Origin: a virus | Taxonomy: Duplodnaviria; Heunggongvirae; Uroviricota; Caudoviricetes | Virus record (IMG/VR): IMGVR_UViG_3300037466_001520 | Direction: 5' to 3' (one strand) | DNA length: 64,000 nt | Shown: in pieces, positions 24,329 through 59,927 of the stretch | Numbering within the stretch: position 1 is the first letter of the stretch | How the letters are laid out: each line of letters opens with the position of its first letter | Made by a program: the position numbers and the translations under genes | Notes under the pieces: model-generated | Told to the model about the DNA's origin: nothing | The model's database searches: none | The model's input: the letters and a program-made list of their open reading frames with translations, nothing else

Positions 24329-24369
24329 ACAAACGTGTATACTGGTCTGGCGGGAAACCGCCAGATCTA

Positions 24370-25474: not shown

Positions 25475-25479
25475 CCAAC

Positions 25480-25555: not shown

Positions 25556-25556
25556 T

Positions 25557-25630
25557 GACCCTATGGCCGAATGGTTAGGCAGCAGCCTGCAAAGCTGTGT
25601 ATACCGGTTCGAATCCGGTTAGGGTCTCCA
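25557..25630 (+). tRNA. tRNA-Cys (GCA), CCA encoded
   Basis: Acceptor GACCCTA/TAGGGTC perfect; anticodon loop CTGCAAA; T-loop TTCGAAT. Confidence 0.7.
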
Positions 25631-25687
25631 CAGGTTGTTTGACACTGTCTATCCTGATATACTTGCCCTAGAAGGGAGGTGGACAGT

Positions 25688-26685: not shown

Positions 26686-26734
26686 TTCCGCATACGGAAT
26701 CACGCAACAGGCCGTTGCGTAAAAGGAAAGGCCC

Positions 26735-26765
26735 CTCCGAAGAGGGGCCTTTCGCTTTGCCTGAC
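26735..26765. terminator. bidirectional terminator AGGCCCCTC-cgaa-GAGGGGCCT-TTCGCTTTG between convergent genes
   Basis: Lies between the plus-strand methyltransferase gene and the minus-strand gene. Confidence 0.55.
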
Positions 26766-37210: not shown

Positions 37211-37483
37211 ATGATCAATCTGCTCGTCTCCTTCGAGTACGAGACTCTCGGCTCCGAATCCCTGCCTGAGGATCAGCGCACGGGCGTCGGAGCCGTTGAC
37301 GTTTCTGTGGAGAGACTACCGGAAACTATCGAAGAGTTCCGGGAAATCGCCCGCACCATCGGCAAGCTCCGCACACCGGAGAAGACCGAGGACTACAAGT
37401 CCGTGAACATCCTCCAGATCGCCGTCCTCGACAAGATCATCCCGGATAGCGGCGAAGTGCTGGAGGGCGAAATTGTCATCTGA
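37211..37483 (+). CDS. hypothetical acidic protein
   Basis: 90-aa ORF. Confidence 0.45.
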   Translation: MINLLVSFEYETLGSESLPEDQRTGVGAVDVSVERLPETIEEFREIARTIGKLRTPEKTEDYKSVNILQIAVLDKIIPDSGEVLEGEIVI

Positions 37484-37877
37484 CCTCGGACGCTGGTGGG
37501 AGGACGCCGCCTGCCAAGGACAGTGGGCTCTCTTCGACTCCACGAAGCCCACAGACCGCAAGCAGGCAGCAGCCATCTGCGCCGAGTGCCCGGTGCGCTG
37601 GGAGTGCTTGCAGGACTCGCTGAACCGACAGGACCGCCACGGATTCCACGGAGGCGCTGACGAGCTTGAGCTGCGCATCATGCAGTCCGTGAACTCCAAG
37701 GGCGAGACCCACATCTACCCCGGACGCCGGATCCGCTGCGCCTTCTGCGGGCCGCGCTCGACAAAGCACCTGACGGTGCTGGAGCGCCGACGCACCAAGA
37801 CCCACATCCAGTGCTCGCAGTGCGGGCTGGAGTGGTGGACGCGCAAGATCATAAATAAGAAGGCCGACAACTTCTGA
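37473..37877 (+). CDS. WhiB-like Fe-S transcription factor with C-terminal zinc-ribbon extension
   Basis: WWEDAACQGQ ... ICAECPVRWECL (four Cys) plus extra CxxC pairs; TTG start after GGAGGG. Confidence 0.7.
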   Translation: MSSDLGRWWEDAACQGQWALFDSTKPTDRKQAAAICAECPVRWECLQDSLNRQDRHGFHGGADELELRIMQSVNSKGETHIYPGRRIRCAFCGPRSTKHLTVLERRRTKTHIQCSQCGLEWWTRKIINKKADNF

Positions 37878-37943: not shown

Positions 37944-40049
37944 TTGAACAACTGGGAGACCCTCTTTGCCCCCGTCCTCGCGAAGGGCAGGCAAGTCCGC
38001 GAGGGTCAGGCATTGCTCGGCAACGCCATCATCAACGCCATCGAGCATGGCGGTAGCCTCCTCGGGGAGGCCGGTACGGGAACCGGTAAGAGCTTCGCAA
38101 CGCTCATCCCGATCATCTCCAAGGTCATCGAGGCCAAGAAGGAGAACAAGCGCTACCGGGGCGTTGTCTCGACCGAGACCAACACCCTGCTCGCCCAGCT
38201 TGTCGACAAGGATCTTCCCTTCCTCGCCAAGCTCTACCCGGGCTTCGAGTACCGCAAGCTCATGGGCCGCTCGAATTACCTGTGCCTCAACGTCGCCAAG
38301 CAGAGTGCGAAGGGTGACCTCCAGCTCGACATGCTCGTCAAGAAGCTGGAGATGCGCAAGGACAGCATCGGGGACGGCGAGAAGGCCGACGTCGAGCGCG
38401 TGCTGAACCGCAAGCTCACCAAGGACGAGTGGGAGTCCATCGCCGGTTCCTCCAAGTTCTGCCCCGAGAACCAGTGCTCCTCGGACGAGTGCTTCACCGC
38501 CAAGGCCCGCACCAAGGCCCTCGAAGCCGACATCGTCATCACCAACCACGCGCTCCTCGCCACCGACACGGAGATGAAGGCCGGGGACGCCCAGTTCAGC
38601 GAAGGCCTGCTCGGGACGATCAACTGCCTCGTGGTGGACGAAGGCCACAAGCTGGAGCCGGTGCTCGTGGACCAGTGGACCAAGCGGCTCTCCGACTGGG
38701 AGCTTCGGGAGATGTCCGCCAGCGTCAACGAGGGCATCTACAACGCCCGCCCGAACTTCACGGACACGGACGGTGTCGCCGATCAGGCAGGGCAAGCCCT
38801 CGCAGGACTCGAAGACATGCTCAAGAACATCCTCCGCTTTTTTGTAAAACTTGCAGAAAAGCGCGGCGAGGAGTGGGACGGCTACTCCGAGGCGCTGTCC
38901 GAGAAGCTCCTCAGCTCCTCGGACTCCTCGACCCTGCTCACGCTCATGGCCGAGTACGAGGTCGAGAACCCCAAGCGGATCGAGGCCGCGATGCTCGCGA
39001 TGATCAACGCCAACGATTACCTCAAGAAGGCTCTCGAAGCAGCCGAGACGCTGGGCACCAAGAGCGTCAAGCGGAAGATCCGCAAGGGCATCACGGCCTC
39101 GAAGAACCTGCTGGAGATCCTCGGGATCATGTCCAACGCACTCCAGACCAAGGAGGGCATCGTCAACCGCTTCGGCACCTTCGGGTGCATCGTGGATGGC
39201 TGGAAGCGCTTCAACGGCGAGCCGGGTCTGACGATCCGCCTCGTGCCGCTGGACGTCTCGGCGCGCGCCCGGTTCATCTGGGAGGGAGTGAAGACCCCGG
39301 TCCTGCTCTCGGCGACCCTGACGGACCTCACGGACCCGTCCAACCCGTTCCGCTACGCTCGCGAGTGCGTGGCCTTCCCTCCGGGGAAGGAGATCCGGGT
39401 GGAAAGCCCCTTCGACCTCAAGACCCAGCAGCTCATCTACGTCACCGCAGGGCAGGACGAGCCAGCCGACGTCAAGGGCGCGCAGTTCTCCTTCAACGAA
39501 CTGCTGCGCCTCGTGGAGGCCTCCAAGGGCCGCGCGCTCGTGCTGTTCACCTCCCGCAAGGAGCTGGACTGGGCGGCGTCTCAGGCCCGCTTCGCACAGG
39601 CTCAGGGGCTCTTCCCGTACCGGATCCTCGTGCAGGAGAAGGACTCGGACAAGGCCCAGCTCGCAGCAGACTTCAAGGAGGACGTGCACTCCGTGCTGTT
39701 CGCCACGAAGAGCTTCTTCACCGGATTCGACGCGCCCGGTGAGACACTGTCTATGGTAGCAATTTGCAAGTTCCCGCTTCCGCGATACAGTGTTGAGTGC
39801 AGGCAGCAGATCGCGCACTGGCGCTCACGAGGGTTCTCCAACTGGTACACACGCGCGGCGCTGACGGACCTTGAGCAGGCCTTCGGTCGGCTCGTCCGCT
39901 CGGACGACTGCCGGGGAGTGCTCGCGCTCCTCGACCAGCGGGCCATGGACTCCAAGTCCAACGTCTTCAAGACGGCCCACCTCGGGCTGACCTCGGTCGG
40001 CTCACCCATCACGCAGGACATCAACCAAGTCTCCGCCTTCTTCAACTAG
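37944..40049 (+). CDS. DinG/Rad3-family Fe-S helicase
   Basis: Walker A GTGKS; DEGH box (VVDEGHKLE); 4-Cys Fe-S segment (CLNV ... CPENQCSSDEC). Confidence 0.8.
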   Translation: MNNWETLFAPVLAKGRQVREGQALLGNAIINAIEHGGSLLGEAGTGTGKSFATLIPIISKVIEAKKENKRYRGVVSTETNTLLAQLVDKDLPFLAKLYPGFEYRKLMGRSNYLCLNVAKQSAKGDLQLDMLVKKLEMRKDSIGDGEKADVERVLNRKLTKDEWESIAGSSKFCPENQCSSDECFTAKARTKALEADIVITNHALLATDTEMKAGDAQFSEGLLGTINCLVVDEGHKLEPVLVDQWTKRLSDWELREMSASVNEGIYNARPNFTDTDGVADQAGQALAGLEDMLKNILRFFVKLAEKRGEEWDGYSEALSEKLLSSSDSSTLLTLMAEYEVENPKRIEAAMLAMINANDYLKKALEAAETLGTKSVKRKIRKGITASKNLLEILGIMSNALQTKEGIVNRFGTFGCIVDGWKRFNGEPGLTIRLVPLDVSARARFIWEGVKTPVLLSATLTDLTDPSNPFRYARECVAFPPGKEIRVESPFDLKTQQLIYVTAGQDEPADVKGAQFSFNELLRLVEASKGRALVLFTSRKELDWAASQARFAQAQGLFPYRILVQEKDSDKAQLAADFKEDVHSVLFATKSFFTGFDAPGETLSMVAICKFPLPRYSVECRQQIAHWRSRGFSNWYTRAALTDLEQAFGRLVRSDDCRGVLALLDQRAMDSKSNVFKTAHLGLTSVGSPITQDINQVSAFFN

Positions 40050-40054
40050 GACCC

Positions 40055-41215
40055 ATGAAACTCTCTGACGTCAGGGGCGAGGTAGACCTCGACCCCGAGG
40101 CCGCTATTTCCTTCATCACCAACTGGTTCCACGCCGAAGACCTCATCACCTTCGTCGGTCGGCGCTCCGTCGCCGAGGACCGCTACAACACCCTCTCCGC
40201 GTCCATGACGGCCATGGAGTTCGTCCAGCTCGTCCGAGAGGACCCCGAGTCCTTCCGGGGGCTGGTCTTCGACTCCGAGGGCGGCACGTGGAACCTCTAC
40301 GTCGGGGTCTGCCCCGTCAAGGAGCCCGCAGCTCCCACCCAGCGCGGGACCGAGGACAACGTCCTCTACGTGCCCGGGGTCTGGGCAGACATCGACGTGA
40401 AGGCCGGGAGCTTCGAGTCGACCGAGGACATCATCGAATTCCTCGGCGAACTCGAACTCGAACCCACGATGATCTGCGGATCAGGCTCGGGCGGCGTGCA
40501 CGCCTACTGGCGTCTGCACTGGGGGACCGCTGGCGACAAGCAGCTCATCGAGCAGTGGTGGAGCTACCTCGCGGAGAAGTCCGCGCCGCGCGTGATCGAC
40601 AAGCTCATCGACGTCACGCGCATCCTCCGTGTGCCCGGGTCGGTCAACTTCCCCAAGCAGACCGGCAAGGCGGACGCAGACACCCGCCTAAAGCCCGTGG
40701 TGCTCTACAGGGCGACCGGAAAGACCTACTCGGCAGAGGAGATCCGGGCAGTCTCCAATGACGCCTTCGAGAGGCGCAGGGCGGCTCGCAAGGCGCTGAT
40801 CCACGCGGACTCGCAGCGCCGCTTCCAGACCGACGCGCTCATGCGTCAGGTGCTCTCGACCGGGCTGCACAACCGCTGGCGGATGTTCCGGGCCATCGCT
40901 TTCATGGAAGACTATTACAACTCCGAGCTGACGTGGGACGAGATCCTCACGCCCTACGGTTGGCAGTGGCTTCGCACACTCCGGGACGGCTCCAACGAGT
41001 GGGCTCGCCCGGGTCGCGCAGAGCGCTCGGCAGTGGTGGATTTCGAGGACAGCCCGGTCATGAGCCTGCTCTCCTCCTCGGAGGAGACCGGCCTGAGCGA
41101 CCTCAAGGATGCCGGGATCGCGCTGACCAAGTTCCGCGTGCTCCTCCGGCTACACTTCGACGACAACCACGAGGCGCTCGTGCAGGACTTCCTCGCAAGG
41201 ATGGACAACAAGTGA
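40055..41215 (+). CDS. primase-polymerase (PrimPol/AEP-like) protein
   Basis: N-terminal region with VPGVWADIDVK-type acidic catalytic motif; 386 aa; placement next to the helicase-primase. Confidence 0.5.
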   Translation: MKLSDVRGEVDLDPEAAISFITNWFHAEDLITFVGRRSVAEDRYNTLSASMTAMEFVQLVREDPESFRGLVFDSEGGTWNLYVGVCPVKEPAAPTQRGTEDNVLYVPGVWADIDVKAGSFESTEDIIEFLGELELEPTMICGSGSGGVHAYWRLHWGTAGDKQLIEQWWSYLAEKSAPRVIDKLIDVTRILRVPGSVNFPKQTGKADADTRLKPVVLYRATGKTYSAEEIRAVSNDAFERRRAARKALIHADSQRRFQTDALMRQVLSTGLHNRWRMFRAIAFMEDYYNSELTWDEILTPYGWQWLRTLRDGSNEWARPGRAERSAVVDFEDSPVMSLLSSSEETGLSDLKDAGIALTKFRVLLRLHFDDNHEALVQDFLARMDNK

Positions 41216-41526
41216 CCAAGCGAGGAACCTCCAACACCAACGACCGGGGGTCCTCCTACGCGAGGCGTGCCCGGAAGCAGTGGCTCCTCGATGAGTTCGG
41301 CGACGGGACCGAGGCGGAGTGCTCATTTTGTCACCGTACGGTGACATTTTCGACGATCAGCGTTGACCGCTATCCCATCCCCGGATGCGAGGGCGGTCGC
41401 TACGTCAAGGGCAACATCCGACCTAGTTGCAATTCTTGCAATTCCAAGGATGGCGGCTTGCTAGGGAACGCAAGGCGACTTGCCCGGTCCGCCGATTCGA
41501 CACTGTTGATGGTAGCCTCCGCTTGA
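41211..41526 (+). CDS. HNH endonuclease
   Basis: CSFCH ... PIPGCEGGRY ... NIRPSCNSCNSK; GTGA overlap. Confidence 0.65.
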
Positions 41527-44371: not shown

Positions 44372-44581
44372 GTGAAAGAACTTGTAAAGACAACCTCGGC
44401 AGTCCTCATCCCCAAGCGCGACAACTGGCGCTGGGTCATCCGCGAACTCACCGCTGGCCTCGACGTCGAATACTGGCCGCAGAGGCGCACCGCCTCGGGG
44501 AACACCCTCGTCGGCATCTCCTCCTACCGCAAGTCGGACATCGACAAGGTGCTCGAACGGGCCGTCGAGAAGCTCTCCTAG
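44372..44581 (+). CDS. hypothetical protein
   Basis: The track ORF starts at the TTG of the TTGACACTG motif; GTG 44372 is preferred. Confidence 0.4.
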   Translation: MKELVKTTSAVLIPKRDNWRWVIRELTAGLDVEYWPQRRTASGNTLVGISSYRKSDIDKVLERAVEKLS

Positions 44582-46035
44582 CGCCCTCTGAGCGTGCTGC
44601 GCTGGGCGCGGAAGTGCTGGCGGTACGACCCCATACCCACGCCCGGAGAAGGCAGGCGACGGCCCACAGGGCTCGTGGCGCGGAAGCCTCCCGGGTGGAG
44701 TCCCTCGGGCGGGGAGATGAGCACGGAGATGATGCCCCAGACCATCGCGTCCATGCGGTCGGGCGAGGTCGACGTGTCCATGGGATCGTAGAAGAGGAGC
44801 TGGTCCTCAAGCTCGGGGAAGGTGTCCGCCAGCGCCACACGGCCCTGCTGCATCGCGATCACGACCGGCTCGGAGCGCGTTACCTTGCCCTGCTTGGCGT
44901 GGACGAACATGACCTTGAGCGAGGGGTCCTCGGCGTTGATCGCCATTTGGAGGAGCTGACCTCCTTGGTTCTTCTCGACCACGACGAACTTGGTCCGGTG
45001 GGCACGGGCCGCGTCGGCAACCTGACGCGCCCACACGTCCGGAGAGGCGTTGAGCGAGTAGTCCGCGAGGACGGCAGCTCGGCGCTTGGTGAGGTCGCGC
45101 TCGACGGTCGAGCCGATAGCCATGATGCCGCACTCGTCTCGCTGCTTCGGGTCCCCGGAGACGGACGGGTCGACGGCGATGATGCGCAGCGGCCACGTCG
45201 AGGGTACGACCAGACTCTTCGCGGACTCGATCATGTCGGTGGTGAAGACGATTCCCTCGGCGTCGTCGATCATCTCGCCCATAAGCTCCTGCTTGGCGAG
45301 GTCCGAGTTGCCGTATTGACGCACCATGAAGTCGAGGTAGTCCTTGGAGAGCGAGGAGTTCTCGAAGGTGTTTCCTCGAACAATTACGATTTTCTCTTCG
45401 GGGTTCTTCGAGCGCTCGATCAGCTCGCGCATGACCTTCGTACGCTTCGGCGTGGTCGCGAGGAGCACCTGACCACCGCCACCTCCGGGGAGCTGGAGAC
45501 GGGTCGCCATGAGCAGGTTGGAGTACAGGGTCGCGCCGGAGGCGTCGGCTGTGGTGTTCCACGCCGCGAACTCGTCGCCGACCGCGAAGTGGAACTGCGG
45601 ACCACGCGCGGCGTCGGGGGACTCGGAGGAGAGGAGCTGGGCGTAGGAGCCGTTGGGCCAATGCAGCGACGTTGTGGAGGGCTTGTACTCTGGCCGCTCG
45701 TGCTCCGGGTGGACGGCGAGGATTCCGGACTCACCGGTCACGACGGTGTTACGGATGTCCATAACCGTCTTCGCCGCGATGCCGATACGGCACCCCGGAT
45801 ACTTGATCGCCATCTTGCGCACCCACTGGGTCATCGCCAGCGTCTTGCCGAAGCCTCGGCCAGCGATGAGCGCCGTGACGCGCCAGTTCCCTTCGGGAAT
45901 GAGCTGCTCCGGGCGGAGCCAGAACTCCGCGTCGTAGTTGAGCAGCGCCAGCTCTTCTTCTGTGTACTGCGCATAGATCTCCTCCTGCTGCTCAGGAGTG
46001 AGTTCTGCTACCTGCTCGGCAACTGACTTGCCCAT
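44578..46035 (-). CDS. terminase large subunit
   Basis: 485 aa; Walker A-like GRGFGKT; terminase_6-like nuclease C-terminal half; minus strand. Confidence 0.8.
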   Translation of the reverse strand: MGKSVAEQVAELTPEQQEEIYAQYTEEELALLNYDAEFWLRPEQLIPEGNWRVTALIAGRGFGKTLAMTQWVRKMAIKYPGCRIGIAAKTVMDIRNTVVTGESGILAVHPEHERPEYKPSTTSLHWPNGSYAQLLSSESPDAARGPQFHFAVGDEFAAWNTTADASGATLYSNLLMATRLQLPGGGGGQVLLATTPKRTKVMRELIERSKNPEEKIVIVRGNTFENSSLSKDYLDFMVRQYGNSDLAKQELMGEMIDDAEGIVFTTDMIESAKSLVVPSTWPLRIIAVDPSVSGDPKQRDECGIMAIGSTVERDLTKRRAAVLADYSLNASPDVWARQVADAARAHRTKFVVVEKNQGGQLLQMAINAEDPSLKVMFVHAKQGKVTRSEPVVIAMQQGRVALADTFPELEDQLLFYDPMDTSTSPDRMDAMVWGIISVLISPPEGLHPGGFRATSPVGRRLPSPGVGMGSYRQHFRAQRSTLRGR

Positions 46036-47910: not shown

Positions 47911-48192
47911 ATGCCAGACACTCGTGACCTCGCACTCGGAGCTACCGTCAAGATCTTCCGCTCACAGCGGAGGCTCACCCAGCAGAACGTCTCCAAGCTC
48001 ATGAAGATCCATGGGCACCACACGTGGCACACCTCTACGGTGTCCATGATCGAGCACGGACGGCGACGTCTCCGCATGTCGGAGGCGGGGGCGCTGTCGA
48101 AGACCCTCGGCGTGCCCGTCAAGAAGCTGCTCGAAGCAGCCAACGCGGTCGACCGAGGCTTGACAGGGATCGTCGACGAACGCAAGCGCTAA
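47911..48192 (+). CDS. XRE-family helix-turn-helix regulator
   Basis: LTQQNVSKLMKIHGHHTWHTSTVSMIEHGRR HTH; terminator downstream. Confidence 0.7.
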   Translation: MPDTRDLALGATVKIFRSQRRLTQQNVSKLMKIHGHHTWHTSTVSMIEHGRRRLRMSEAGALSKTLGVPVKKLLEAANAVDRGLTGIVDERKR

Positions 48193-51770: not shown

Positions 51771-51801
51771 CACTGCGGATGATGTGTGCGAGGATGGCGG
51801 T

Positions 51802-51996
51802 ATGACAGAAGAGACCCAGAACGGGCTGCTGAACGCCATGGGCCAGATCGCGACACTCGTCGCGCTCTACTCCGGGTTCAAGCAGCAGTTCCTCGACGCG
51901 GGCTGGTCCCCCGAGGCAGCGGAGCAGCTAGTCATCATCTCGATCAAGCAGAACTTCGCGGAGCAGAACGCTGCGAAAGGCATCGCCAATGGCTAA
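51802..51996 (+). CDS. hypothetical protein
   Basis: ATG 51802 (track 51784). Confidence 0.45.
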   Translation: MTEETQNGLLNAMGQIATLVALYSGFKQQFLDAGWSPEAAEQLVIISIKQNFAEQNAAKGIANG

Positions 51997-52162
51997 TACA
52001 CCGCTGACCATGCAGATCCCGCTCAAGGGCACGCTCTACCTGCGCCTCGACGGACAGGAGCAGGTGATCGAGCTAGGTAAGGTCACCTACCATGCGGACG
52101 TGAACGTCCAGCTCCAGCCGAGCACCATCTCGCCCACCACCTTCGAGTTCAAGAAGAACTGA
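51989..52162 (+). CDS. small hypothetical protein (57 aa), not in ORF track
   Basis: ATG overlapping upstream TAA; nearly all codons end in G/C. Confidence 0.4.
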   Translation: MANTPLTMQIPLKGTLYLRLDGQEQVIELGKVTYHADVNVQLQPSTISPTTFEFKKN

Positions 52163-52179
52163 TGAGCACGATCTTTTGC

Positions 52180-52195
52180 AAGAATTGCAAAAACC
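52180..52195 (+). promoter_or_regulatory. TTGCAA-GAA-TTGCAA dyad (putative operator or mRNA hairpin) just upstream of the RBS
   Basis: TTTTGCAAGAATTGCAAAA; same element at 54461-54475 and 59582-59597. Confidence 0.45.
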
Positions 52196-52215
52196 TACCG
52201 AGGAAGCTCTACTAA

Positions 52216-52551
52216 ATGGGATACGGATTCTACACACTGCCCGATGGCCGGGAGGCCGGGTACCTCGTCGACGCCGAGTGCGACAAGGAGGGCTGCACCG
52301 AGGAGATCGACAGGGGCTTCGACTACCTCTGCGGAGACGCCCCGGACGGGCACCGCTCCTTCGACGAGCCCGGGTGCGGCCTGTACTTCTGCTGGACGCA
52401 CCAAGACGACCACGACTGCCCCAACCCCGAGTGCGGCAAGTACAGCACGGACGGCCACCACTACTGCCAGCTCCCCGCCGACCACGACGAGGGGCACTTC
52501 GACCGGGACTCCGGGGCGTACTTCACCAAGACCGAGGAGGATCTCGTCTGA
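52216..52551 (+). CDS. Cys/His-rich zinc-binding protein
   Basis: Multiple CxxC/HxxC pairs; preceded by a TTGCAAGAATTGCAA dyad. Confidence 0.5.
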   Translation: MGYGFYTLPDGREAGYLVDAECDKEGCTEEIDRGFDYLCGDAPDGHRSFDEPGCGLYFCWTHQDDHDCPNPECGKYSTDGHHYCQLPADHDEGHFDRDSGAYFTKTEEDLV

Positions 52552-53027
52552 TGCGTATCTGGTATGACGCCGAATTCTTGGAGGATGGAAAAACCATCGA
52601 CCTGATCTCAATCGGCATGGTGCGCGAGGACGGCGCTGAGCTGCACCTCGTGAACTTCGACGCCGACTGGCACCGGATCAGCCGCGACGAGTGGCTGATG
52701 GAGAACGTCATCCCGCAGATACAGGGCATGTTCCCGGTGCCCAAAGACCAGCTCGCCGAGGAGGTCCGCCAGTTCGTCACCGAGGGCCTCGCCCCGGGCG
52801 AGACGGCAGAGCTATGGGCTTGGTACGGAGCGTACGACCACGTCGTCCTGTGCCAGCTCTACGGGAAGATGATCAACCTTCCCAAGGGCTTCCCGATGTT
52901 CACCCACGACCTCAGGCAGCTCGCCAAATCCCGGGACCTGCCCAAGCAGGAGGAGGGCAAGCACGACGCCTTGGAGGACGCCCGGTGGGTCCAGAGGGCA
53001 TGGACCCACAACCTGATCTGGAACTAG
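52551..53027 (+). CDS. DEDDh 3'-5' exonuclease (RNase T/oligoribonuclease-like)
   Basis: WYDAEF (Exo I) and HDALEDA (Exo III with His); TGATG overlap. Confidence 0.65.
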   Translation: MRIWYDAEFLEDGKTIDLISIGMVREDGAELHLVNFDADWHRISRDEWLMENVIPQIQGMFPVPKDQLAEEVRQFVTEGLAPGETAELWAWYGAYDHVVLCQLYGKMINLPKGFPMFTHDLRQLAKSRDLPKQEEGKHDALEDARWVQRAWTHNLIWN

Positions 53028-53099
53028 CAGAGAGCGCTCGGTTGACACCGGGCGCTCTTCTGTATATGGTAAGACTACCAACAAGGAAAGGTAGACACC

Positions 53100-53447
53100 A
53101 TGCACCGTATCAAAGTAGACGACCTCCGAGGGATCCGCCCGGGATACGACGTCCGGGTCCCGTACTTCGGCGCTGTCCTCGAAGGGCCGTACGACGACAT
53201 CCTCCTGATCAACGGGGACGAGATCACCTTCAAGGTCGGGGCCAACGACGTCACCCTCACCCGAGACACCGAGATCGGCATCTTCAACGCCTTCGAGCGG
53301 CTCAACGTCTCCGACGCCGTCTGCCTCTGGGAGGACACGGTCGGGGACTCGGGCGATGCACCCAGCAGCAAGGAGCTGCACGATTACACCATCGCCGTCT
53401 TCGAGGACATCAAAGTAGACAAGTGGGCCTCGACCCAGCACTACTGA
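53100..53447 (+). CDS. hypothetical protein
   Basis: 115-aa ORF; TTGACA-N17-TATGGT promoter at ~53039. Confidence 0.5.
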   Translation: MHRIKVDDLRGIRPGYDVRVPYFGAVLEGPYDDILLINGDEITFKVGANDVTLTRDTEIGIFNAFERLNVSDAVCLWEDTVGDSGDAPSSKELHDYTIAVFEDIKVDKWASTQHY

Positions 53448-53488
53448 CCGTGATAGACAGGACGGGCAGGCCGACAGACAGGGACGAC

Positions 53489-53719
53489 ATGCAGACGACA
53501 GCTTGGTTCGTGCGCCACGGGATCGACCTCGGCAGGGTAGTCGAGGTTGGATCTACATCGTTCGAGCGCTTCGGGGCGCTGTCCCGGGTGGGCGCGGCGA
53601 AGCTCGTCGAGACCGTCTTCCCCAGCATCATCGAGGCGCTTGAGCAGCAGGCCCGACGCGAGGGTTCGGAGGCCGCAGCCGACTGGCTCAAGGCGCTCCA
53701 GCAGCGCCCCTTCAAGTAA
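53489..53719 (+). CDS. hypothetical protein
   Basis: In-frame ATG (alternative GTG 53450). Confidence 0.4.
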   Translation: MQTTAWFVRHGIDLGRVVEVGSTSFERFGALSRVGAAKLVETVFPSIIEALEQQARREGSEAAADWLKALQQRPFK

Positions 53720-53811
53720 CGCTCAGAACACGGCAGAAAACCGGCTCAGAGCGCTTGTGTAACTCTGTATATGCTGATAGTCTTTCCATACCAACAGGGG
53801 AGGAGAAAGCC

Positions 53812-54243
53812 ATGGTCAAGACCTACAGGCCGAAGGACCGGGACGTCCAAGCAGCACAGTGGACCGGGGACCTGCAATCGGCCAACGAAATCATCCGGTG
53901 GGCGGAGCGCCTTTCAATCCCAGCCGAATACCGGCTGGCCGAGGACAGCGGGTTCCTCGACGACGTGCTCGTCATCAAGCAGTTCGACACAGAGGTCGTC
54001 TACGTCCACAAGGACTGGTGGCTCGCCTTCGACGGGACGTGGTTCCAAGCCTACGACCCGCACTACTTCCCGGCGCTGTTCGAGGAGGTCGAGGAGGATC
54101 CGCGCATCGAGAGGCTCAAGGCCATGCGCGACGAGTTGGCCGCGATGATCGACGAGCACAAGAACACCCTGCTCGGGCCAGTCCTCATGGCCTACGAAGG
54201 GACGCTGCGCGCGCTCAACTACGCCCTGCTGGAGACCGAATGA
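53812..54243 (+). CDS. hypothetical protein
   Basis: RBS GGAGGAGAAAGCC. Confidence 0.5.
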   Translation: MVKTYRPKDRDVQAAQWTGDLQSANEIIRWAERLSIPAEYRLAEDSGFLDDVLVIKQFDTEVVYVHKDWWLAFDGTWFQAYDPHYFPALFEEVEEDPRIERLKAMRDELAAMIDEHKNTLLGPVLMAYEGTLRALNYALLETE

Positions 54244-54459
54244 TCAAGGAGTGGTGGGAGGACTACTGGGGCATGATCGTCCTGACCGTCGTGGTGGTAG
54301 TCCTCTTCGTGGCGGGCGGGTTCTCTGTCTCAAGCTACTACGACGCCCGCAACTCCTGCATCAACCACGACGGACTCCCGGAGCCCACCGGCTGGTTCGG
54401 GATGGGGATCCAGTGCGTGGACTACCACGGAACAGTCATCAAAGCCGTCCAACAATAAA
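54241..54459 (+). CDS. small membrane protein
   Basis: ATGA overlap; TM helix. Confidence 0.45.
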
Positions 54460-54489
54460 CTGCAAGAATTGCAAGAAGGAAACCAGACA

Positions 54490-54732
54490 GTGGCAATCGG
54501 AGCTACCCTCAAGAAGAACGTCCACGCCCTCACCCGTCGCCGGGACTTCCTCGTGGAGCGGGTGAAGTGCTATCAGGGGAACAGCCCGTCCTACGACAAG
54601 GCAGAGGCCGGGGCGATCAGCTTCGCCCTGCGGATGATCGAGGAGTACCCCGAGGAGGCCCGACAGGTGCTCCACAAGCTCCAGATCGACAAGGGCATCT
54701 ACAAGGCCATGCACGGGGTCGAGGGTGTCTGA
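54490..54732 (+). CDS. hypothetical protein
   Basis: GTG after AAGGAAA; a TTGCAAGAATTGCAA dyad sits immediately upstream (track start 54469 lies inside the dyad). Confidence 0.45.
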   Translation: MAIGATLKKNVHALTRRRDFLVERVKCYQGNSPSYDKAEAGAISFALRMIEEYPEEARQVLHKLQIDKGIYKAMHGVEGV

Positions 54733-54877
54733 GGCCGAGGGAGCGGTGCTGCTCACCGCACTGGCCGGGATCGGGGTCGTCGTCATCATCGCCGGACTCT
54801 CCTTCGTGGGAATGATCTCGGCCTACGTCGTGCTGACGTTCAGCGCGTTCCTGAACAGGTTCCGGCGCAGAATCTAG
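54725..54877 (+). CDS. small membrane protein (50 aa), not in ORF track
   Basis: GTG overlapping upstream TGA; hydrophobic LLTALAGIGVVVIIAGLSFVGMISAYVVL. Confidence 0.35.
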   Translation: MSEAEGAVLLTALAGIGVVVIIAGLSFVGMISAYVVLTFSAFLNRFRRRI

Positions 54878-54949
54878 CCGCGACTTGCGCAGTTGACACA
54901 GCCTGTATATGCTAGACAAACCAACCGACAGACACGGGAGACCAAAGCT

Positions 54950-55207
54950 ATGACCGAACTGAGCAAGAACGAAGCACGCGAGCACGCCCGACGCATCATC
55001 GAGAACGCCAAGGAGGACTCGACCCTCGCCATCGCCGACAAGGCGATCATCGCGGAGGGGCTCTTCCCCGAGGATCTCTCCGAGGTGCTCGCCCAGATGA
55101 GGACGGCGCACGTCCTCGTCACGTGGGACGATGAGGTCGTCGCCGAGCCCGCGAAGGATAAGGACGAGAAGTCCAAGAACCAGACCTCTGCCTCGCCCAA
55201 GGGCTGA
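54950..55207 (+). CDS. hypothetical protein
   Basis: RBS GGGAGACCAAAGC; terminator downstream. Confidence 0.5.
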   Translation: MTELSKNEAREHARRIIENAKEDSTLAIADKAIIAEGLFPEDLSEVLAQMRTAHVLVTWDDEVVAEPAKDKDEKSKNQTSASPKG

Positions 55208-55221
55208 CGATTCGCGCTGAG

Positions 55222-55255
55222 AAGGCCCGCTCCTCAGGGGGCGGGCCTTCGCTTG
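55222..55255 (+). terminator. hairpin GGCCCGC-tcctcaggg-GGCGGGCC-TTCGCTTGG
   Basis: After ORF 54950-55207. Confidence 0.45.
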
Positions 55256-55324
55256 GACAAGGAGTGTAAGACTGTGTATGATTACTACACCGACAGATAT
55301 CAGAGGAGGCAGCAGTTGCTAGAA

Positions 55325-55339
55325 CTTCACTTCACTTCA
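55325..55339 (+). repeat. (TTCAC)x3 pentanucleotide tandem repeat at the 5' edge of a start-less coding-like region
   Basis: ACTTCACTTCACTTCACG read directly from the sequence. Confidence 0.6.
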
Positions 55340-55446
55340 CGTGCCAGTCCGGAGCTAACTACCAGACCTTCGGCGCACACGTCGCCGACAACATCGGGGC
55401 CGTCGTCGAGCGCTACACGCACTGGGGGGAGGGCGGATCCGACCGG

Positions 55447-55599
55447 ATGGCCGTCGTCCTCCAGTTCGACCTCGGCCAGCTCGCGTGGACCATCTGGGAC
55501 ACAAATGCCGAACTGTTCGAGGATTCCGCGTTCCACGGCACCGAGGCCGAGAAGAAGGAGATCGGCGTCGACAACATCCTCTGGAAGGAGACCCACTGA
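55447..55599 (+). CDS. hypothetical protein; the coding-like signal extends upstream to ~55282 without a canonical start
   Basis: First in-frame ATG; the same frame is strongly GC3-biased from ~55342. Confidence 0.35.
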   Translation: MAVVLQFDLGQLAWTIWDTNAELFEDSAFHGTEAEKKEIGVDNILWKETH

Positions 55600-55898
55600 T
55601 GGCCCAAGCAGCAGTCATGGAGTTCGAGGCCGACGACAACCTAGTGCAGGTCCAAGCCCTCTCAGCGGCCATCACGCGCCACCACGAGTCGCTGGAGGCC
55701 GTGCTGGAGCATTACAACCCTTGGGAGGGTCGGGCTAAGTTCACCATCTACATATACCTCCGAGGCGAGAGCCGGAGATACCAGTGGGAATACGAGCGGG
55801 ACTACTTCAAGAACATGATCCTGTGGCCTCTGGACGAGCGGCTCGACCGGCTCAACGTCGAGAACTCGGAGATCACGTGGTACGGAGGCTTTGAGTGA
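55599..55898 (+). CDS. hypothetical protein
   Basis: ATG overlapping TGA. Confidence 0.5.
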   Translation: MAQAAVMEFEADDNLVQVQALSAAITRHHESLEAVLEHYNPWEGRAKFTIYIYLRGESRRYQWEYERDYFKNMILWPLDERLDRLNVENSEITWYGGFE

Positions 55899-56110
55899 TG
55901 GTGGAGAAGAAGCGCAACACCGAGCGTCGGCACGTTCCCGGCGTCGGCAAGGACGTCAAGGTGACCCGGGACGGCGAGGTCTTCGTGAACGACCGAGAGG
56001 TGCACAACCTCCCGGTCATCACGGCCCTTGACGGGACGAGGATGACGCTCCAGATGGCGATCCACAAGTCCTTCCCGGACATACCCATGAGGAGGGTGCC
56101 GACATGGTGA
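55895..56110 (+). CDS. hypothetical protein
   Basis: Overlap coupling. Confidence 0.45.
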   Translation: MMVEKKRNTERRHVPGVGKDVKVTRDGEVFVNDREVHNLPVITALDGTRMTLQMAIHKSFPDIPMRRVPTW

Positions 56111-56364
56111 CGGAGCCGGAGTTCAAGTCGCAGACCCGCGAGGAGCGCCGGAAGAAGGCCGAGTTCCGCAGGGCTCTGGAGCGCAACGCCGAGGCCGCGC
56201 TCGTCCGCAGCGGGGTCAAGTCGCCGTCCATGGGCTTCTTCGAGAAGGACGGCAAGACCTACATGTACCACATCCACCTCAACGAGGAGGGGCGGATGAA
56301 GGAGCGCGTCTACCAAGTGCACGTGAGCCTCCGCCCCATCGTCGAGCACGTAGACAAGGACTGA
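56104..56364 (+). CDS. hypothetical protein
   Basis: 86-aa ORF. Confidence 0.5.
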   Translation: MVTEPEFKSQTREERRKKAEFRRALERNAEAALVRSGVKSPSMGFFEKDGKTYMYHIHLNEEGRMKERVYQVHVSLRPIVEHVDKD

Positions 56365-56365
56365 C

Positions 56366-56653
56366 ATGCACATCGAATTCTCCTGCAACATCACGAAGAA
56401 CCCGGCCCTCGACGACTTCGACGACCTGACACTCCAGATGGACCGCAACTGCGGCGGGGGAGCGAACGCGGAGTTCCGCCACGACCCGCAGAAGAATCAT
56501 CTCATCGTCCTGCTCGACCCCTGCCCAGTCGCCCTCCAGACGTGGGACGCCGAGGACTGGCACCCGTGGGGCATGGCCTGCCTCGACAAGTGCCTCCCGA
56601 TCCTCGACCGGCTGGAGGCCGAGGACATGTTCTTCAAGCTGGTCGACGAGTGA
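56366..56653 (+). CDS. hypothetical Cys-containing protein
   Basis: 95-aa ORF. Confidence 0.5.
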   Translation: MHIEFSCNITKNPALDDFDDLTLQMDRNCGGGANAEFRHDPQKNHLIVLLDPCPVALQTWDAEDWHPWGMACLDKCLPILDRLEAEDMFFKLVDE

Positions 56654-56835
56654 AGGCTTGGGTGCTCAAGTTCCGGAGCTACCGGGGCGGCGACTCGGTC
56701 ATCTGGGACTACGACACGGAGGACGAGGCCAAGGCCGAGGCCGACAGGCGCAACGAGGCCTACCAGTCCGACACCTTCTACGTCGAGCGCTGGGACCCGG
56801 AGAAGTACGGTCCGTGGTTGACACGAACTGAGTAG
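56650..56835 (+). CDS. hypothetical protein
   Basis: GTGA overlap. Confidence 0.4.
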   Translation: MKAWVLKFRSYRGGDSVIWDYDTEDEAKAEADRRNEAYQSDTFYVERWDPEKYGPWLTRTE

Positions 56836-56886
56836 CTGTGTATCTTTATATCTGTCAGCAGGAAGCAGGCAGAAAGGGGGCGCAGG

Positions 56887-57189
56887 ATGCCCGCACAGAT
56901 CAGGAACCTCCAGTGGTGCAAGCCCGGGATGAAGGTCTTCATCCGGGTCGTCGGAGCGGCGGGCGAGAGGCTCGACCCCGCCACTGTCATCCGGTGGACC
57001 AAGACCCGCGTCTACGTCGTGGACGAGCGCGGCAACGAGCGGTCCTTCTACCAGCCCACATGGGCACTCAAGCTCATCGAGTGGAAGAAGCTGCGGCCCG
57101 GACAGGGATTCCGCGAGCTGGTCTCCGAGAACTACCCGACATTCAAGGCCGAGGTTGAGGCCGCACGAGAGGCAGGGATCACCGAATGA
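56887..57189 (+). CDS. hypothetical protein
   Basis: RBS GAAAGGGGG; TTGACA-N17-TATCTT promoter upstream. Confidence 0.5.
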   Translation: MPAQIRNLQWCKPGMKVFIRVVGAAGERLDPATVIRWTKTRVYVVDERGNERSFYQPTWALKLIEWKKLRPGQGFRELVSENYPTFKAEVEAAREAGITE

Positions 57190-57353
57190 CCAAGGTAAAG
57201 TACACCATCGACCTCGACATCGACGAGGAGTCGTGGGACCTCCAGTTCTCCACCGGCAGGGACGCCAAGTCCATCCGGGAGGACGTCAAGAGCTACCTCG
57301 ACACCGTCGTGATCGAGCAGCTCCACGCCATCGACGCACTCAAGACCGCCTGA
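57186..57353 (+). CDS. small hypothetical protein (55 aa), not in ORF track
   Basis: ATGA overlap; GC3-rich. Confidence 0.4.
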   Translation: MTKVKYTIDLDIDEESWDLQFSTGRDAKSIREDVKSYLDTVVIEQLHAIDALKTA

Positions 57354-57413
57354 GCTTGACGCCAGCATTCACAACTTTGTATCTTTAGACCAAACCTACG
57401 GAAGGAACCACCC

Positions 57414-58022
57414 ATGACGACAGTCGGCAGCACGCTCAACAGCGCCCTCACCGGAGCCAACCGCTCCCTCGAAGTCCACAACCCCTCGGACAGTCTGATC
57501 AACTTCACCATCCTGCGCCAAGATACCGGAGCGTTCCTCCCGACCCCGGAGAAGCTCGGGATCACGGTCAACAAGGCCGACTTCCTCGCACTCCCGGAGG
57601 TTGCTGCGGTCACCAAGGAGCGCGCGCTGGCGATGGTCGAGAAGGAGCGCGAGCACTGCCACGAGATGAAGGCTCGCGCCGAGACAGCGGAGGCCAAGCT
57701 GGAGAAGGTCGAGAAGGCCGTCGCCAAGCTGCGCAAGGAGGTCCGCCAGCAGTTCTTCAACGAAGCCAACAAGACCTATGTCGAGGGCGTGATCACCTTC
57801 CTCGAAGAGGCACTCTCCGACGAGCCCGAGTTCGTACTGCCGACCGAGGAGGGCGAGGAGTTCGTCGCCTACATGGGCTCAACCGAGATGCGCTTCAAGA
57901 CGGTCAGGTATCAAGGTGACGGCTCCTACCAGATCTACTACCTCACCGACGCCTCGCTCTGGAACGCCGAGCAGGTCTTGGGCTACCTCAGCGGCCACAA
58001 GAACATCGAGAAGGCCGCTTGA
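57414..58022 (+). CDS. hypothetical coiled-coil protein
   Basis: RBS GGAAGGAACC; TTGACG-N18-TATCTT promoter upstream. Confidence 0.55.
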   Translation: MTTVGSTLNSALTGANRSLEVHNPSDSLINFTILRQDTGAFLPTPEKLGITVNKADFLALPEVAAVTKERALAMVEKEREHCHEMKARAETAEAKLEKVEKAVAKLRKEVRQQFFNEANKTYVEGVITFLEEALSDEPEFVLPTEEGEEFVAYMGSTEMRFKTVRYQGDGSYQIYYLTDASLWNAEQVLGYLSGHKNIEKAA

Positions 58023-58372
58023 GCACGCTCTCGTGGAACCCCAAGGGGCTGCGCGAGTACCTGTGCAGGCAGTCCGTCGTCGCCCCGACCGATGAGGTCG
58101 GGGAGGCGATCTCTGCCCTGATCCGCGTCCTCGACAGCCACAGGCCCCTCGGCTCGGACGGGAAGCACGGAGACAGCCACACCGACTTCTGCGGCTGCAT
58201 CCGGCACTGCGAGCACTGCGACGAGGACGTGGAGATCCGGCCCACCGTCTTCGGCACGACCCGATGGATGCACATCCGGATACTCAAGCTCTGGGACGGG
58301 ACTCCAGTTCGTGCTTCGCTGTGGGAGCGCTGCGAGGGCAAGAACACCACGGCGACCCCGGTCATCGGCTAG
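58019..58372 (+). CDS. zinc-binding protein
   Basis: HTDFCGCIRHCEHCDED. Confidence 0.5.
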   Translation: MSTLSWNPKGLREYLCRQSVVAPTDEVGEAISALIRVLDSHRPLGSDGKHGDSHTDFCGCIRHCEHCDEDVEIRPTVFGTTRWMHIRILKLWDGTPVRASLWERCEGKNTTATPVIG

Positions 58373-58449
58373 GGGTCGGGTTGACACCCGGCCCTTGGCC
58401 GTTCTAATATATACACATGTCAACAAGCACACCGAGCAAGGAGGAAACC

Positions 58450-58743
58450 ATGAAGCTGAACATCGAGTGGACGCAGGACAACGCGGACGAGAAGACCATC
58501 GACCACCTCACCAGCGAGGTCGGGAAGGTCTTCGGCGCTGGCGTCGACTTCCTCGAACTGAGCCGGGGCAAGCTGCGCACCAAGGTCAAGGTCACCGTCG
58601 ACACGGCGCTGCGGCTGCGCGAGGTCGAGGACTTCGCGCACGCTGTCGGAGACAAGCTGAGACGGGAGTTCAAGACCTTCGACGTCCGCAAGCTCACCTT
58701 CACCCCGAGCTTCGCGATCAACCTGCCGGGAGCGGAGGACTGA
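58450..58743 (+). CDS. hypothetical protein
   Basis: RBS AAGGAGGAAACC; TTGACA-N18-TAATAT promoter upstream. Confidence 0.5.
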   Translation: MKLNIEWTQDNADEKTIDHLTSEVGKVFGAGVDFLELSRGKLRTKVKVTVDTALRLREVEDFAHAVGDKLRREFKTFDVRKLTFTPSFAINLPGAED

Positions 58744-58994
58744 TGCCCGAGCACTACCCGCTCAAGCAGAGCCTCGCGAACGAGGTCACCACCATCGTCG
58801 ACGCGGTCCTCGACTTGATCTACAACAAGCCGGTGAGCCCGGACCATGTCGTCTACACGATCTCCAAGTCTCTCGGGAAGGCCTACAACGAGGGCCACAG
58901 CGACGGAGTGATACAGATGAGCCACGCCTCCTACACGGCGAGGGACGTCGCCGAGGCGGTCAAGGAGCACAAGCAGAAGGCGGAGAAGCGATGA
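58743..58994 (+). CDS. hypothetical protein
   Basis: ATG overlapping TGA. Confidence 0.45.
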   Translation: MPEHYPLKQSLANEVTTIVDAVLDLIYNKPVSPDHVVYTISKSLGKAYNEGHSDGVIQMSHASYTARDVAEAVKEHKQKAEKR

Positions 58995-59182
58995 CCATAG
59001 AGTTCTGCGGATGGGAGGTCGGGGACCGCGTGATCGTCGACGCCGGACCGTGGGAGGGCGCAACCGCCACGGTCACCGGGATCGACAGGATGACCGGCCT
59101 GATCTGGTTCACGCCCGACGACCCGGAGTGGTCGACCGGCGAGTGCGCGGTTCGGGCGTGGCAGCTCGTGACGGAGGCATGA
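58991..59182 (+). CDS. hypothetical protein
   Basis: 63-aa ORF. Confidence 0.45.
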   Translation: MTIEFCGWEVGDRVIVDAGPWEGATATVTGIDRMTGLIWFTPDDPEWSTGECAVRAWQLVTEA

Positions 59183-59565
59183 TGGAGGAAGTGAAGAGCA
59201 CCGAGAGGCTCTACACCCACGCCGAGGTCATCGAGGCCGCTATCGCCGGGATCAACTCCTACGAGACCCAGATGCTCCGGATCGCGGACTTGAAGATCAC
59301 CGAGCTAGCCGAGAAGGTCAAGGCCCTCAAGGAGGAGCGCTCGCTGTACTGGTCCCGAGAGGTACACACCGGCTGGACCCGGCTGCGCGAGATCCTCGGG
59401 CAGCACAAGTACATGCACCCGGACCGCAAGCGCGGCATGTGGGAGTGCGAGTGCGGGGACGACATCGGGCCGTTCACCCGGGAGACGACGTACTCTCAGG
59501 GACCGGGTCCCACGCTGCACGAGAAGCACCTCGACCACATCGCCGACAAGCTGACGACAGCATAG
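59179..59565 (+). CDS. hypothetical protein
   Basis: 128-aa ORF. Confidence 0.5.
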   Translation: MMEEVKSTERLYTHAEVIEAAIAGINSYETQMLRIADLKITELAEKVKALKEERSLYWSREVHTGWTRLREILGQHKYMHPDRKRGMWECECGDDIGPFTRETTYSQGPGPTLHEKHLDHIADKLTTA

Positions 59566-59609
59566 CCAGCTTCTCTGCAACAATTGCAAGAATTACAAAA
59601 GGGAGACAC

Positions 59610-59927
59610 ATGCAGACTTTGACCGTATCGCTCGTCGGGATCACGCCGCACGAGGACGAGGAGGAGCACGAGGACTTCCTCTACGGGGTCACGCTCGACG
59701 TCGCCGGGTACGCCATCGCCTCGGTCGGCGGCTGGAGCCACAGCCTCATGCCCAACGGCTGGTCGAGCTTCGACGTCTGGGTCAACGTCCCGGACGGCTT
59801 CGAGTGGTCGGAAGGCCCCAACTGGTGGGCGACCCGGGGCCAGCTCTGGGAGCTGCTCTTCCAGAAGTACGGCATCATGGCGACCGAGTTCATCCTCGAA
59901 ACGATAGAGGACGCCGTCCTTGTCTGA
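59610..59927 (+). CDS. hypothetical protein
   Basis: RBS GGGAGACAC; a TTGCAA dyad sits immediately upstream. Confidence 0.5.
   Translation: MQTLTVSLVGITPHEDEEEHEDFLYGVTLDVAGYAIASVGGWSHSLMPNGWSSFDVWVNVPDGFEWSEGPNWWATRGQLWELLFQKYGIMATEFILETIEDAVLV

Follow-up and report, generated by a model that had tools for sequence, protein, structure and literature searches.

Dispersed dyad repeats have been reported in several clusters of actinobacteriophages for more than a decade, without an assigned binder or function. Cluster O mycobacteriophages (Corndog and its relatives) carry more than 30 copies per genome of a 17-bp repeat, TGTTCGG-NNN-CCGAACA, about one third of them in coding regions; the repeats are denser in the small-gene arm and lie mostly off promoters, dimeric DNA-binding proteins have been predicted as their binders, and their function is open (PMC4351075). 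Cluster EG Microbacterium phages carry 18-bp inverted repeats, GATCAACCNNGGTTGATC, located 14-22 bp upstream of starts, whose function is likewise open (PMC7302621). The stoperators of Cluster A are asymmetric 13-14 bp sites for the L5 gp71 and Bxb1 gp69 repressors of temperate phages, bound by monomers and oriented with transcription (PMC6550527, PMC9283540), and the Start-Associated Sequences (SAS) of Cluster K mycobacteriophages and Cluster EF Microbacterium phages are asymmetric motifs that occupy the ribosome-binding site (RBS; PMC3203893, PMC7302621). Here we describe a family of AT-rich dyads built on TTGCAA in a 64,000-nt stretch of the phage record IMGVR_UViG_3300037466_001520 (referred to as the window). 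The initial annotation of this DNA had pointed to three such copies, immediately 5' of ribosome-binding sites, as control elements of a three-gene regulon. We found that the three copies are a subset of a family of about 14 sites, most of which lie inside genes, and the RBS-linked regulon does not describe them.

At 100% identity the window matches several Logan contigs and a metagenomic contig of 153,443 bp that is circularly permuted (JGI 3300037312, Ga0395899_0000094), and it derives from an uncultured actinobacteriophage with a G+C content of ~61% and a G+C fraction at third codon positions (GC3) close to 0.9. Proteins at the window ends were used to extend the sequence read by 9.7 kb on the upstream side and by 14 kb past the end of the window, to 87.7 kb in all (57% of the genome); positions past 64,000 are window-equivalent coordinates. 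Precomputed Pfam gene tables span ~56 kb of this sequence, with window 10.9-42.5 kb lying outside them. The phage shows synteny with Atuin, Racecar and Mimi, Arthrobacter phages of 194 kb, at an amino acid identity of only 50-72%, and shares with the Atuin group the gene order ribonucleotide reductase (RNR), Ro/TROVE protein, 28 tRNA genes, Mre11 (minus strand), WhiB, helicases, primase and terminase (minus strand). No relative above ~90% identity was present in the collections searched, and when 51.0-60.5 kb was compared by megablast with 50,697 phage records, no close DNA relative came up. The relatives compared below, designated by locus numbers, are fragments of related phages reached through homologs of Mre11, of RNR and of the gene following the first intergenic copy; Atuin was read whole (194 kb). 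Sources of dyad-bearing relatives are JGI 3300038443, ENA ERZ1761212, SRR33780680 and IMG/VR 3300044693_000218, and sources of dyad-less ones are SRR31441642 and SRR17658158.

The 14-mer TGCAAGAATTGCAA has eight matches with up to two mismatches, against 0.13 expected, a number reached in none of 100 shuffles, and at 15-mer length with up to three mismatches there are 12 matches against 0.43 expected. The core TGCAA-N3-TTGCA occurs at 11 exact and three one-mismatch sites, giving 14 in the 87.7 kb (5261, 26063, 27788, 38843, 41428, 52177, 54461, 59576, 59585, 64219, 68039, 72970, 77180 and 77280), whereas the chance expectation for exact cores, estimated by hand from base composition, is ~0.04. 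Symmetrised over both orientations, the consensus is ttYTGCAA-nWn-TTGCARaa, which describes dyad-symmetric sites of 13-19 bp. Positions outside the search core are also constrained, with only T or C at position -7 and only A or T at the central base. The family can equally be read as palindromic TTGCAA boxes, two to three units in number, at a 9-bp phase. Four loci are intergenic, ten of the 14 copies lie within coding sequences, and nine dyads fall in the small-gene early region at 52-78 kb versus five in the remaining 62 kb. With most copies in genes and the relatives' copies beside terminators, the family has no specific association with ribosome-binding sites.

The following in-gene copies lie in the window.

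5258-5276: dyad in the RNR large-subunit gene (3603-5756, plus strand), codons ACT TCT GCA ATT TTT GCA AAA.
27785-27803: dyad in the Mre11-like gene (26765-28228, minus strand), codons TTT TCT GAA ATT CTT GCA GAA, with one core mismatch; P = 6.4e-5.
38836-38862: dyad in a DEAD/Helicase_C_2 helicase gene (37944-40049, plus strand), codons TTT TTT GTA AAA CTT GCA GAA; P = 8.5e-6.
26062-26076: core match in an HNH endonuclease gene (25679-26200, plus strand), coding A-C-K-S-C-N; P = 0.047, family membership ambiguous.
41427-41441: perfect TTGCAA-TTC-TTGCAA in an HNH endonuclease gene (40933-41526, plus strand; atypical GC3 of 0.58), coding S-C-N-S-C-N; P = 0.047, family membership ambiguous.

Since the genome has a GC3 of ~0.9 and the motif is AT-rich, every in-gene copy is visible as a run of rare codons, typically six or seven A/T-ending codons in genes with a GC3 of 0.86-0.89. 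In the RNR gene (GC3 0.89) there are seven such codons in succession, and the probability of the core given the amino acids and the codon usage is 2.6e-5; calculated in the same way, the per-site values range from 8.5e-6 to 3.5e-3, with the two HNH copies at 0.047 each. In smaller genes the dyad is spelled by the codons GTT GCA AAT CTT GCA GCA, ATT GCA AAA ATT GCA, TTG CAA GAA TTG CAG, and TGC AAG AAT TGC AGA, and overall the motif is encoded in all three reading frames via unrelated peptides (C-K-N-C-R, L-Q-E-L-Q, I-A-K-I-A and S-A-I-F-A). When ~120 genes were resampled 200 times with synonymous codons, exact in-gene cores averaged 0.04 and never exceeded 1, compared with seven observed (a ~170-fold excess). 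Synonymous codons could spell the exact core at only about 21 positions in 23.6k codons. Six of these were scored as realised where 0.026 would be expected, and five of ~20 is the safer figure because the counted HNH site at 26063 was mis-framed in the crude gene set. The in-gene look-alikes had initially been set aside as coding coincidences, a view that holds at most for the two HNH copies. As a class the in-gene copies are not coding accidents, and the dyad family is real, with selection on nucleotides overriding codon bias.

Two of the smaller-gene copies, the exact dyads at 77180 and 77280 (locus L305 19364 and 19464), are 100 bp apart and straddle a gene junction. The first lies 78 nt before a stop (codons ATT GCA AAA ATT GCA) and the second 13 nt past the next start (TTG CAA GAA TTG CAG); looping or cooperative binding could take place at this pair.

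Comparison with relatives showed that the peptide at the Mre11 site, DFSEIL.E, is kept in all of them, with its DNA in either of two forms. The dyad is identical codon for codon in L303 (73% amino acid identity) and has one change in L300 (77%), and the site is found without the rare-codon run in L299 (75%), L301/L302 (74%), L304 (68%) and Atuin (55%). In L299 and L301/L302 the codons end in G or C throughout, and in L304 and Atuin there are a few A/T-ending codons but no dyad. None of the 5-6 codons of the site matches the window in L299 and L301, against a background in which 0.70-0.73 of codons are identical. In L312 (89% amino acid identity) the RNR site is retained as 29 identical nucleotides, and Atuin has no dyad at the same place; the helicase dyad is absent from the Atuin and L296 orthologs. 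In relatives that retain a rare-codon run unchanged, the flanking synonymous sites have diverged. A mobile 21-bp insertion or cassette in genes was ruled out as the source of these sites because the Mre11-site peptide is kept even in Atuin and the dyad needs seven separate synonymous changes.

Relatives also have dyads of their own. L301/L302 have a triple, TGTAGTTC-TTGCAAGAA-TTGCAG, that follows the Mre11 stop and precedes a GC-rich terminator hairpin, a dyad in L303 overlaps the T-tract of a terminator between two convergent genes (L303 1690-1730), and L300 carries an in-gene copy at a place where the L299 ortholog has ordinary codons. Conservation in related genomes is mixed: the family is seen in the L300, L301/L302, L303 and L312 lineages with two orthologous in-gene sites kept, but not in the L297, L299 and L304 fragments or in Atuin, and copy 1 of the initial annotation is not in L297. 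Judged from these alignments, the family is maintained within a sub-lineage while individual sites appear to be gained and lost. In L301, the dyad at 4440-4500 is just 5' of a bidirectional GC-rich terminator stem between the convergent Mre11 and methyltransferase genes, the same gene pair that flanks the L303 dyad; the window has a terminator at the equivalent place (~26700-26760) and no dyad there. Relatives of the exonuclease encoded at 52551-53024, drawn from IMG/VR and JGI metagenomes, have at most 55% amino acid identity and no dyads.

These data bear on the suggestion that the dyads have no dedicated function, the intergenic ones being scars of duplication or recombination at module junctions and the in-gene ones by-products of coding for Cys-x-x-Cys pairs or LQELQ coiled coils. 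Such an origin could be claimed for the two HNH copies, each compatible with coding chance, and it could appeal to LQELQK coding, which accounts for many single 19-mer matches in bacterial genomes, and to the fact that the window and L297 part in gene content precisely at copy 1. It is hardly credible for the family, as it has to face seven in-gene copies where 0.04 are expected, runs of seven rare codons with P about 1e-5, identical runs in relatives whose flanking synonymous sites have diverged, copies that are alike only in the dyad, and constraint at flank and centre positions on which the sites were not selected.

The three intergenic copies noted at the outset are all present, with coordinates that shift by 0-4 nt. 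Copy 1 (TCTTTTGCAAGAATTGCAAAAACC) occupies 52172-52195 rather than 52176-52199, its TTGCAA beginning at 52176; copy 2 (AACTGCAAGAATTGCAAGAAGG) lies at 54458-54479, exactly as first reported; and copy 3 (TGCAACAATTGCAAGAATTACAAAAGG) occupies 59576-59602 rather than 59573-59599. Each fills a short gap that separates the upstream stop codon (TGA 52160-52162, TAA 54456-54458 and TAG 59563-59565, respectively) from the Shine-Dalgarno (SD) sequence and start codon of the following gene (ATG 52216, GTG 54490 and ATG 59610). The three starts are also those of independent gene calls made for the source contig. The dyads and the genes that follow them are:

52174-52192, plus strand: dyad 1, TTTTGCAA-GAA-TTGCAAAAA, with perfect 8-bp arms, 12 nt past the TGA and 26 nt ahead of ATG 52216.
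52216-52551, plus strand: gene after dyad 1, a 111-aa Cys-rich protein of no assigned function.
54458-54476, plus strand: dyad 2, AACTGCAA-GAA-TTGCAAGAA, abutting TAA 54456-54458, its 3' flank entering the SD sequence AAGGA (54476-54480) of GTG 54490.
54490-54732, plus strand: gene after dyad 2, an 80-aa protein with no family match.
59573-59602, plus strand: dyad 3, TGCAAC AAT TGCAAG AAT TACAA, three TGCAA-like units at a 9-bp phase, the 3' end overlapping the SD sequence of ATG 59610.
59610-59927, plus strand: gene after dyad 3, a 105-aa acidic protein with no family match.

Copy 3 consists of two overlapping dyads, at 59576 and 59585. Similarity among the intergenic copies is limited to the dyad itself. 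A fourth intergenic dyad, at 68039, lies 2 nt past the stop of a ribbon-helix-helix (RHH) gene and 27 nt before the next start. All four intergenic copies are on the sense strand, upstream of the SD sequence and 12-27 nt ahead of a start codon, with a purine-rich or A-rich central triplet. Homologs of the 111-aa Cys-rich protein are found in Rhodococcus phage E3, Vibrio phage ICP1 and actinobacterial genomes. Gene content switches exactly at dyad 1, where 70-aa and 57-aa genes in the window (51784-52162) are replaced by 45-aa and 121-aa genes in L297 (1996-2637); the L297 region is 74-83% identical and dyad-less, and this single example of a dyad at a mosaic junction is too few to generalise.

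The intergenic copies had been offered two interpretations, a DNA operator for a dimeric regulator or an RNA hairpin acting as a translational operator. The predicted RNA hairpins of copies 1, 2 and 3 have energies of -5.8, -3.1 and -5.4 kcal/mol, values that 3, 30 and 58 of 200 shuffles, respectively, equal or better (z-scores of -3.1 for copy 1 and -1.1 for copy 2). At 13 bp, G-T pairs included, the helicase dyad is a longer palindrome than any other member of the family, and its RNA fold has -14.1 kcal/mol. Over 17 aligned sites the arms pair in 77.8% of cells, versus 76.5% with shuffled 3' partners (139 of 500 shuffles as high), and the covariation score is 0.138 versus 0.128 when shuffled. 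Stem mismatches stand without compensation in the second dyad of copy 3 and in the Mre11 copy. Each arm is thus conserved toward the same sequence and departures from it are uncompensated, a pattern that marks half-site recognition rather than selection for a stem. When the site lists were read against gene strand, the sense-strand central triplet was mixed (GAA, CAA, AAC, UUU, UUC or AUC), giving no orientation rule, and no Rfam family matched.

An RNA element, be it a short hairpin upstream of the SD sequence that serves as a translational operator, a site for an RNA-binding protein, or a processing or stability signal, and that would co-regulate the genes downstream, is quite improbable. 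It would suit the four sense-strand intergenic copies with their A-rich loop triplet 12-27 nt before a start, the folding of copy 1 better than its shuffles and the stability of the helicase copy, as well as the relatives' dyads that abut terminator hairpins, which would then lie in 3' untranslated regions. Nevertheless, copies 2 and 3 fold like shuffles, the stem mismatches are uncompensated, the arms give no sign of covariation, most copies are inside open reading frames distant from starts, and the sense-strand loop sequence varies. The evidence thus favours the DNA operator, for which we infer binding by a protein.

We then considered where the dyads lie with respect to transcription signals. 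Strong sigma70-like promoters, TTGACA-N17/18-TAnnnT, occur every 1-3 kb on the plus strand of the small-gene region (seven versus 1.3 expected in 49.5-61 kb and ten versus 2.1 expected in 59.3-78 kb). On the same strand no terminator-like site was found in 49.5-61 kb and three were found in 59.3-78 kb, none of them at a dyad. The dyads are 0.7-3.3 kb downstream of a promoter, and for all five with both neighbours mapped the following promoter is nearer than the preceding one; they therefore lie inside operons, ahead of the last few genes. Two other readings were rejected. TTGCAA does not serve as the -35 hexamer of a promoter, there being no -10 element at the proper spacing and the scanned promoters lying elsewhere, with none at a dyad; the dyads are not intrinsic terminators either, since they have no GC stem or T-run and in relatives the terminator hairpin is separate from the dyad. 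The promoters at 49522, 53042, 55254, 56818, 57356 and 58381 are on the plus strand and often have an extended -10 element of the TGTATA type; AT-rich islands are found at 267, 28262, 33013, 37147, 50032, 50663 and 53760; and some promoter motifs are intragenic (e.g. 29979) and likewise fall in rare codons.

Because the sites lie within operons and not at promoters, action on elongating RNA polymerase is the most plausible mode. We propose, with a probability of roughly 0.55, that the dyads are duplex-DNA sites for a symmetric phage-encoded oligomer that acts on the elongating polymerase as a roadblock or gate in operons. A symmetric oligomer of a phage DNA-binding protein would recognise the double-stranded DNA half-site by half-site, and the bound protein would obstruct the elongating polymerase with no action on initiation or on ribosomes. 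Like stoperators, such a gate would reduce both the output of promoter-distal genes and the transcription that runs on into the following operon; at the four intergenic copies it would stand directly before the final one to three genes of an early operon.

Pfam matches to DNA-binding domains in the gene tables comprise only WhiB and two further proteins, both of which are candidate binders:

47911-48192, plus strand: XRE-type helix-turn-helix protein of 93 aa, the sole Pfam DNA-binding match in window 42.5-64 kb.
67817-68035 (window-equivalent): ribbon-helix-helix protein (RHH_1), with the dyad at 68039 located 2 nt past its stop.

Sequence searches of the PDB gave weak matches only, of the XRE protein to the BldD N-domain (E = 0.13) and of the RHH protein to a CopG-family protein (E = 0.07). 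No homolog of the XRE protein was found in Atuin, L296 or the relatives' fragments. WhiB, which had been named as a possible regulator together with the XRE protein, is unlikely to bind the sites sequence-specifically, since Atuin and L296 also keep this protein and show no dyad family. A gene in the other 66 kb of the genome may just as well encode the binder. The WhiB-like protein itself (37473-37877) is long (134 aa), with a C-terminal extension containing two Cys-x-x-Cys pairs (CAFC...CSQC) that suggests an added zinc-ribbon; the extension is kept in L296 (58%) and Atuin (45%).

Several points weigh against a gate in operons. Copy 1 is missing upstream of a 74%-identical ortholog in L297, where the upstream gene differs, and the motif is absent from all 194 kb of Atuin and from L304, the 68% Mre11 relative; L296, a 57% helicase relative, has one exact match of the Cys-x-x-Cys type and one with a single mismatch in 22 kb. 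The proteins named above are candidate binders only: there is no dyad near the XRE gene and no relative of its product was found in IMG/VR, and the RHH protein is without a detectable homolog in a collection of 5.8 billion proteins, though dyads occur in at least five lineages. For the intergenic subset, the purine-rich triplet and the distance of 12-27 nt to the start leave room for an RNA-level role. The roadblock function is argued only from analogy with stoperators, and those who described the Cluster O repeats went no further than to assign them to 'a process other than regulation of transcription initiation' (PMC4351075).

The same recognition of DNA by a protein may serve a role other than transcription, such as genome organisation, compaction, replication, packaging or self-marking, in which case the number and density of sites would be selected and not their position. 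This is the main alternative, possible though on balance unlikely. Its strongest support is that about one quarter of the positions able to encode the core synonymously are used, which looks like selection wherever the protein sequence permits; sites lie in the middle of long replication genes, distant from gene boundaries; and they turn over between close relatives while the family persists. The Cluster O authors came to a similar conclusion (PMC4351075). The concentration of sites in the small-gene early region (nine in 52-78 kb versus five in the other 62 kb) and the precise placement of four of them between a stop codon and an SD sequence tell against such a role, as does the lack of a precomputed Pfam match to ParA/ParB, MatP-like or other organiser genes in the ~56 kb of gene tables. 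The 5-3-5 geometry of matS equals that of the dyad and matS is bound by an RHH-containing protein, which counts for a non-transcriptional role, and matS/MatP, parS/ParB and Noc sites are all scattered through coding sequence. In a specific form of this idea, which we consider rather unlikely, the dyads would be density-selected genome-wide marks, not gene switches, through which a symmetric phage-encoded DNA-binding protein organises, insulates or self-labels the phage chromosome in lytic growth. Were it true, the phage would have rewritten about one quarter of the codon strings able to carry the mark, and the dyads would offer the first functional handle on the unexplained Cluster O and EG repeats.

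An exact 14-mer scan of IMG/VR returned single matches only, mostly in AT-rich contigs, and was uninformative. A host operator or known regulon was rejected after a 19-mer scan of 185,579 genomes, in which the matches were mainly LQELQK coding and unrelated Massilia and Ignavibacteriales repeats, with no actinobacterial regulon. The 19-mer TTCTGCAAGAATTGCAGAA, identical to the phage site at 64219, is the apex of a ~60-bp palindromic repeat resembling repetitive extragenic palindromes (GGGGTCAGACCTCAA-19mer-TTGAGGTCTGACCCC), of which there are at least eight copies in the 65% GC chromosome of Massilia sp. H-1 (CP087969.1; L325, L326, L362, L367, L386, L395, L399 and L401), with a further locus in Telluria (L388). 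TTTTTGCAAGAATTGCAAAAA heads a separate repeat family in the Ignavibacteriales metagenome-assembled genome DAOSVM01 (L338, L346, L350, L363 and L378). The palindrome recurs across unrelated repeat families.

Elsewhere in the window, 28 tRNA genes at 6907-25627, two of them scoring as long-arm tRNA-Sec-like, are grouped around a Ro60/TROVE-domain gene (7398-8960). The layout is the same in Atuin, where this gene is annotated as 'Ro-like RNA binding protein'. The large terminase gene (44578-46035, minus strand) sits in the middle of the replication and early region, distant from the structural genes, again as in Atuin; this placement and the circular permutation of the 153,443-bp contig may have a bearing on the packaging strategy.

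For repeats of this kind, the dyad family provides unusually clean evidence of strong nucleotide-level selection. It is also a tractable test case: the codon strings able to carry the motif can be counted (~21, with 5-6 in use), orthologous sites in relatives are in an all-or-none state, and there are two small candidate regulators. For annotation it carries a warning, as short palindromes before ribosome-binding sites may be all that shows of a family whose members are mostly concealed in genes.

The dyads belong to a known class, the dispersed dyad repeats of actinophages, of which this unrelated AT-rich sequence is a new member. With the Cluster O repeats they share an inverted repeat with a 3-bp A/T-rich spacer, a frequency far above chance, occurrence both between and within genes, a higher density in the arm of small non-structural genes, a location mostly off promoters, the lack of an orientation rule and a phage that is not obviously temperate. 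They differ in having AT-rich TGCAA arms, unrelated to the GC-rich TGTTCGG, and a core arm that is shorter (5 bp, weakly extending to 8) and more degenerate, whereas the Corndog arms are invariant; ten of 14 copies are in coding sequence compared with about one third, tandem third units occur at a 9-bp phase, and the phage is an uncultured, Atuin-like one of 153 kb. The Cluster EG repeats resemble the intergenic dyads in their placement in short gaps before starts in the small-gene arm (compare 12-27 bp here) and in their conservation across diverged relatives, but they are almost all start-associated with a 2-bp spacer, while the dyads here are mostly in-gene. With an unrelated sequence, the family is an analogue, not a homolog, of the Cluster O and EG repeats.

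Stoperators likewise have many copies genome-wide, often at gene boundaries and sometimes in genes, and it is their action on elongation that we borrow as an analogy. The dyads are not stoperators, because those are asymmetric, oriented and bound by an immunity repressor; the dyads are symmetric, their central triplet is mixed relative to the sense strand, and neither an immunity repressor nor, in the ~56 kb of gene tables, a Pfam match to integrase or parABS is seen. A motif associated with the start codons of certain genes, which is in effect what the initial annotation proposed, would recall the SAS. The dyads are not SAS either, because those occupy the RBS itself, whereas the dyads are symmetric and upstream of the SD sequence, with a core ending 12-27 nt before the start, and ten of 14 are not start-associated. 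The operators of RHH proteins (MetJ met-boxes, Arc, CopG and the omega heptads) are short two-fold-symmetric boxes, repeated two to several times at a 7-11-bp phase, to which dimers bind cooperatively. The TTGCAA boxes, with two to three units at a 9-bp phase (59576-59602 and the L301 triple) and an RHH gene adjoining one dyad, share this arrangement. Known RHH operators are found at promoters, not scattered through coding sequence as the dyads are.

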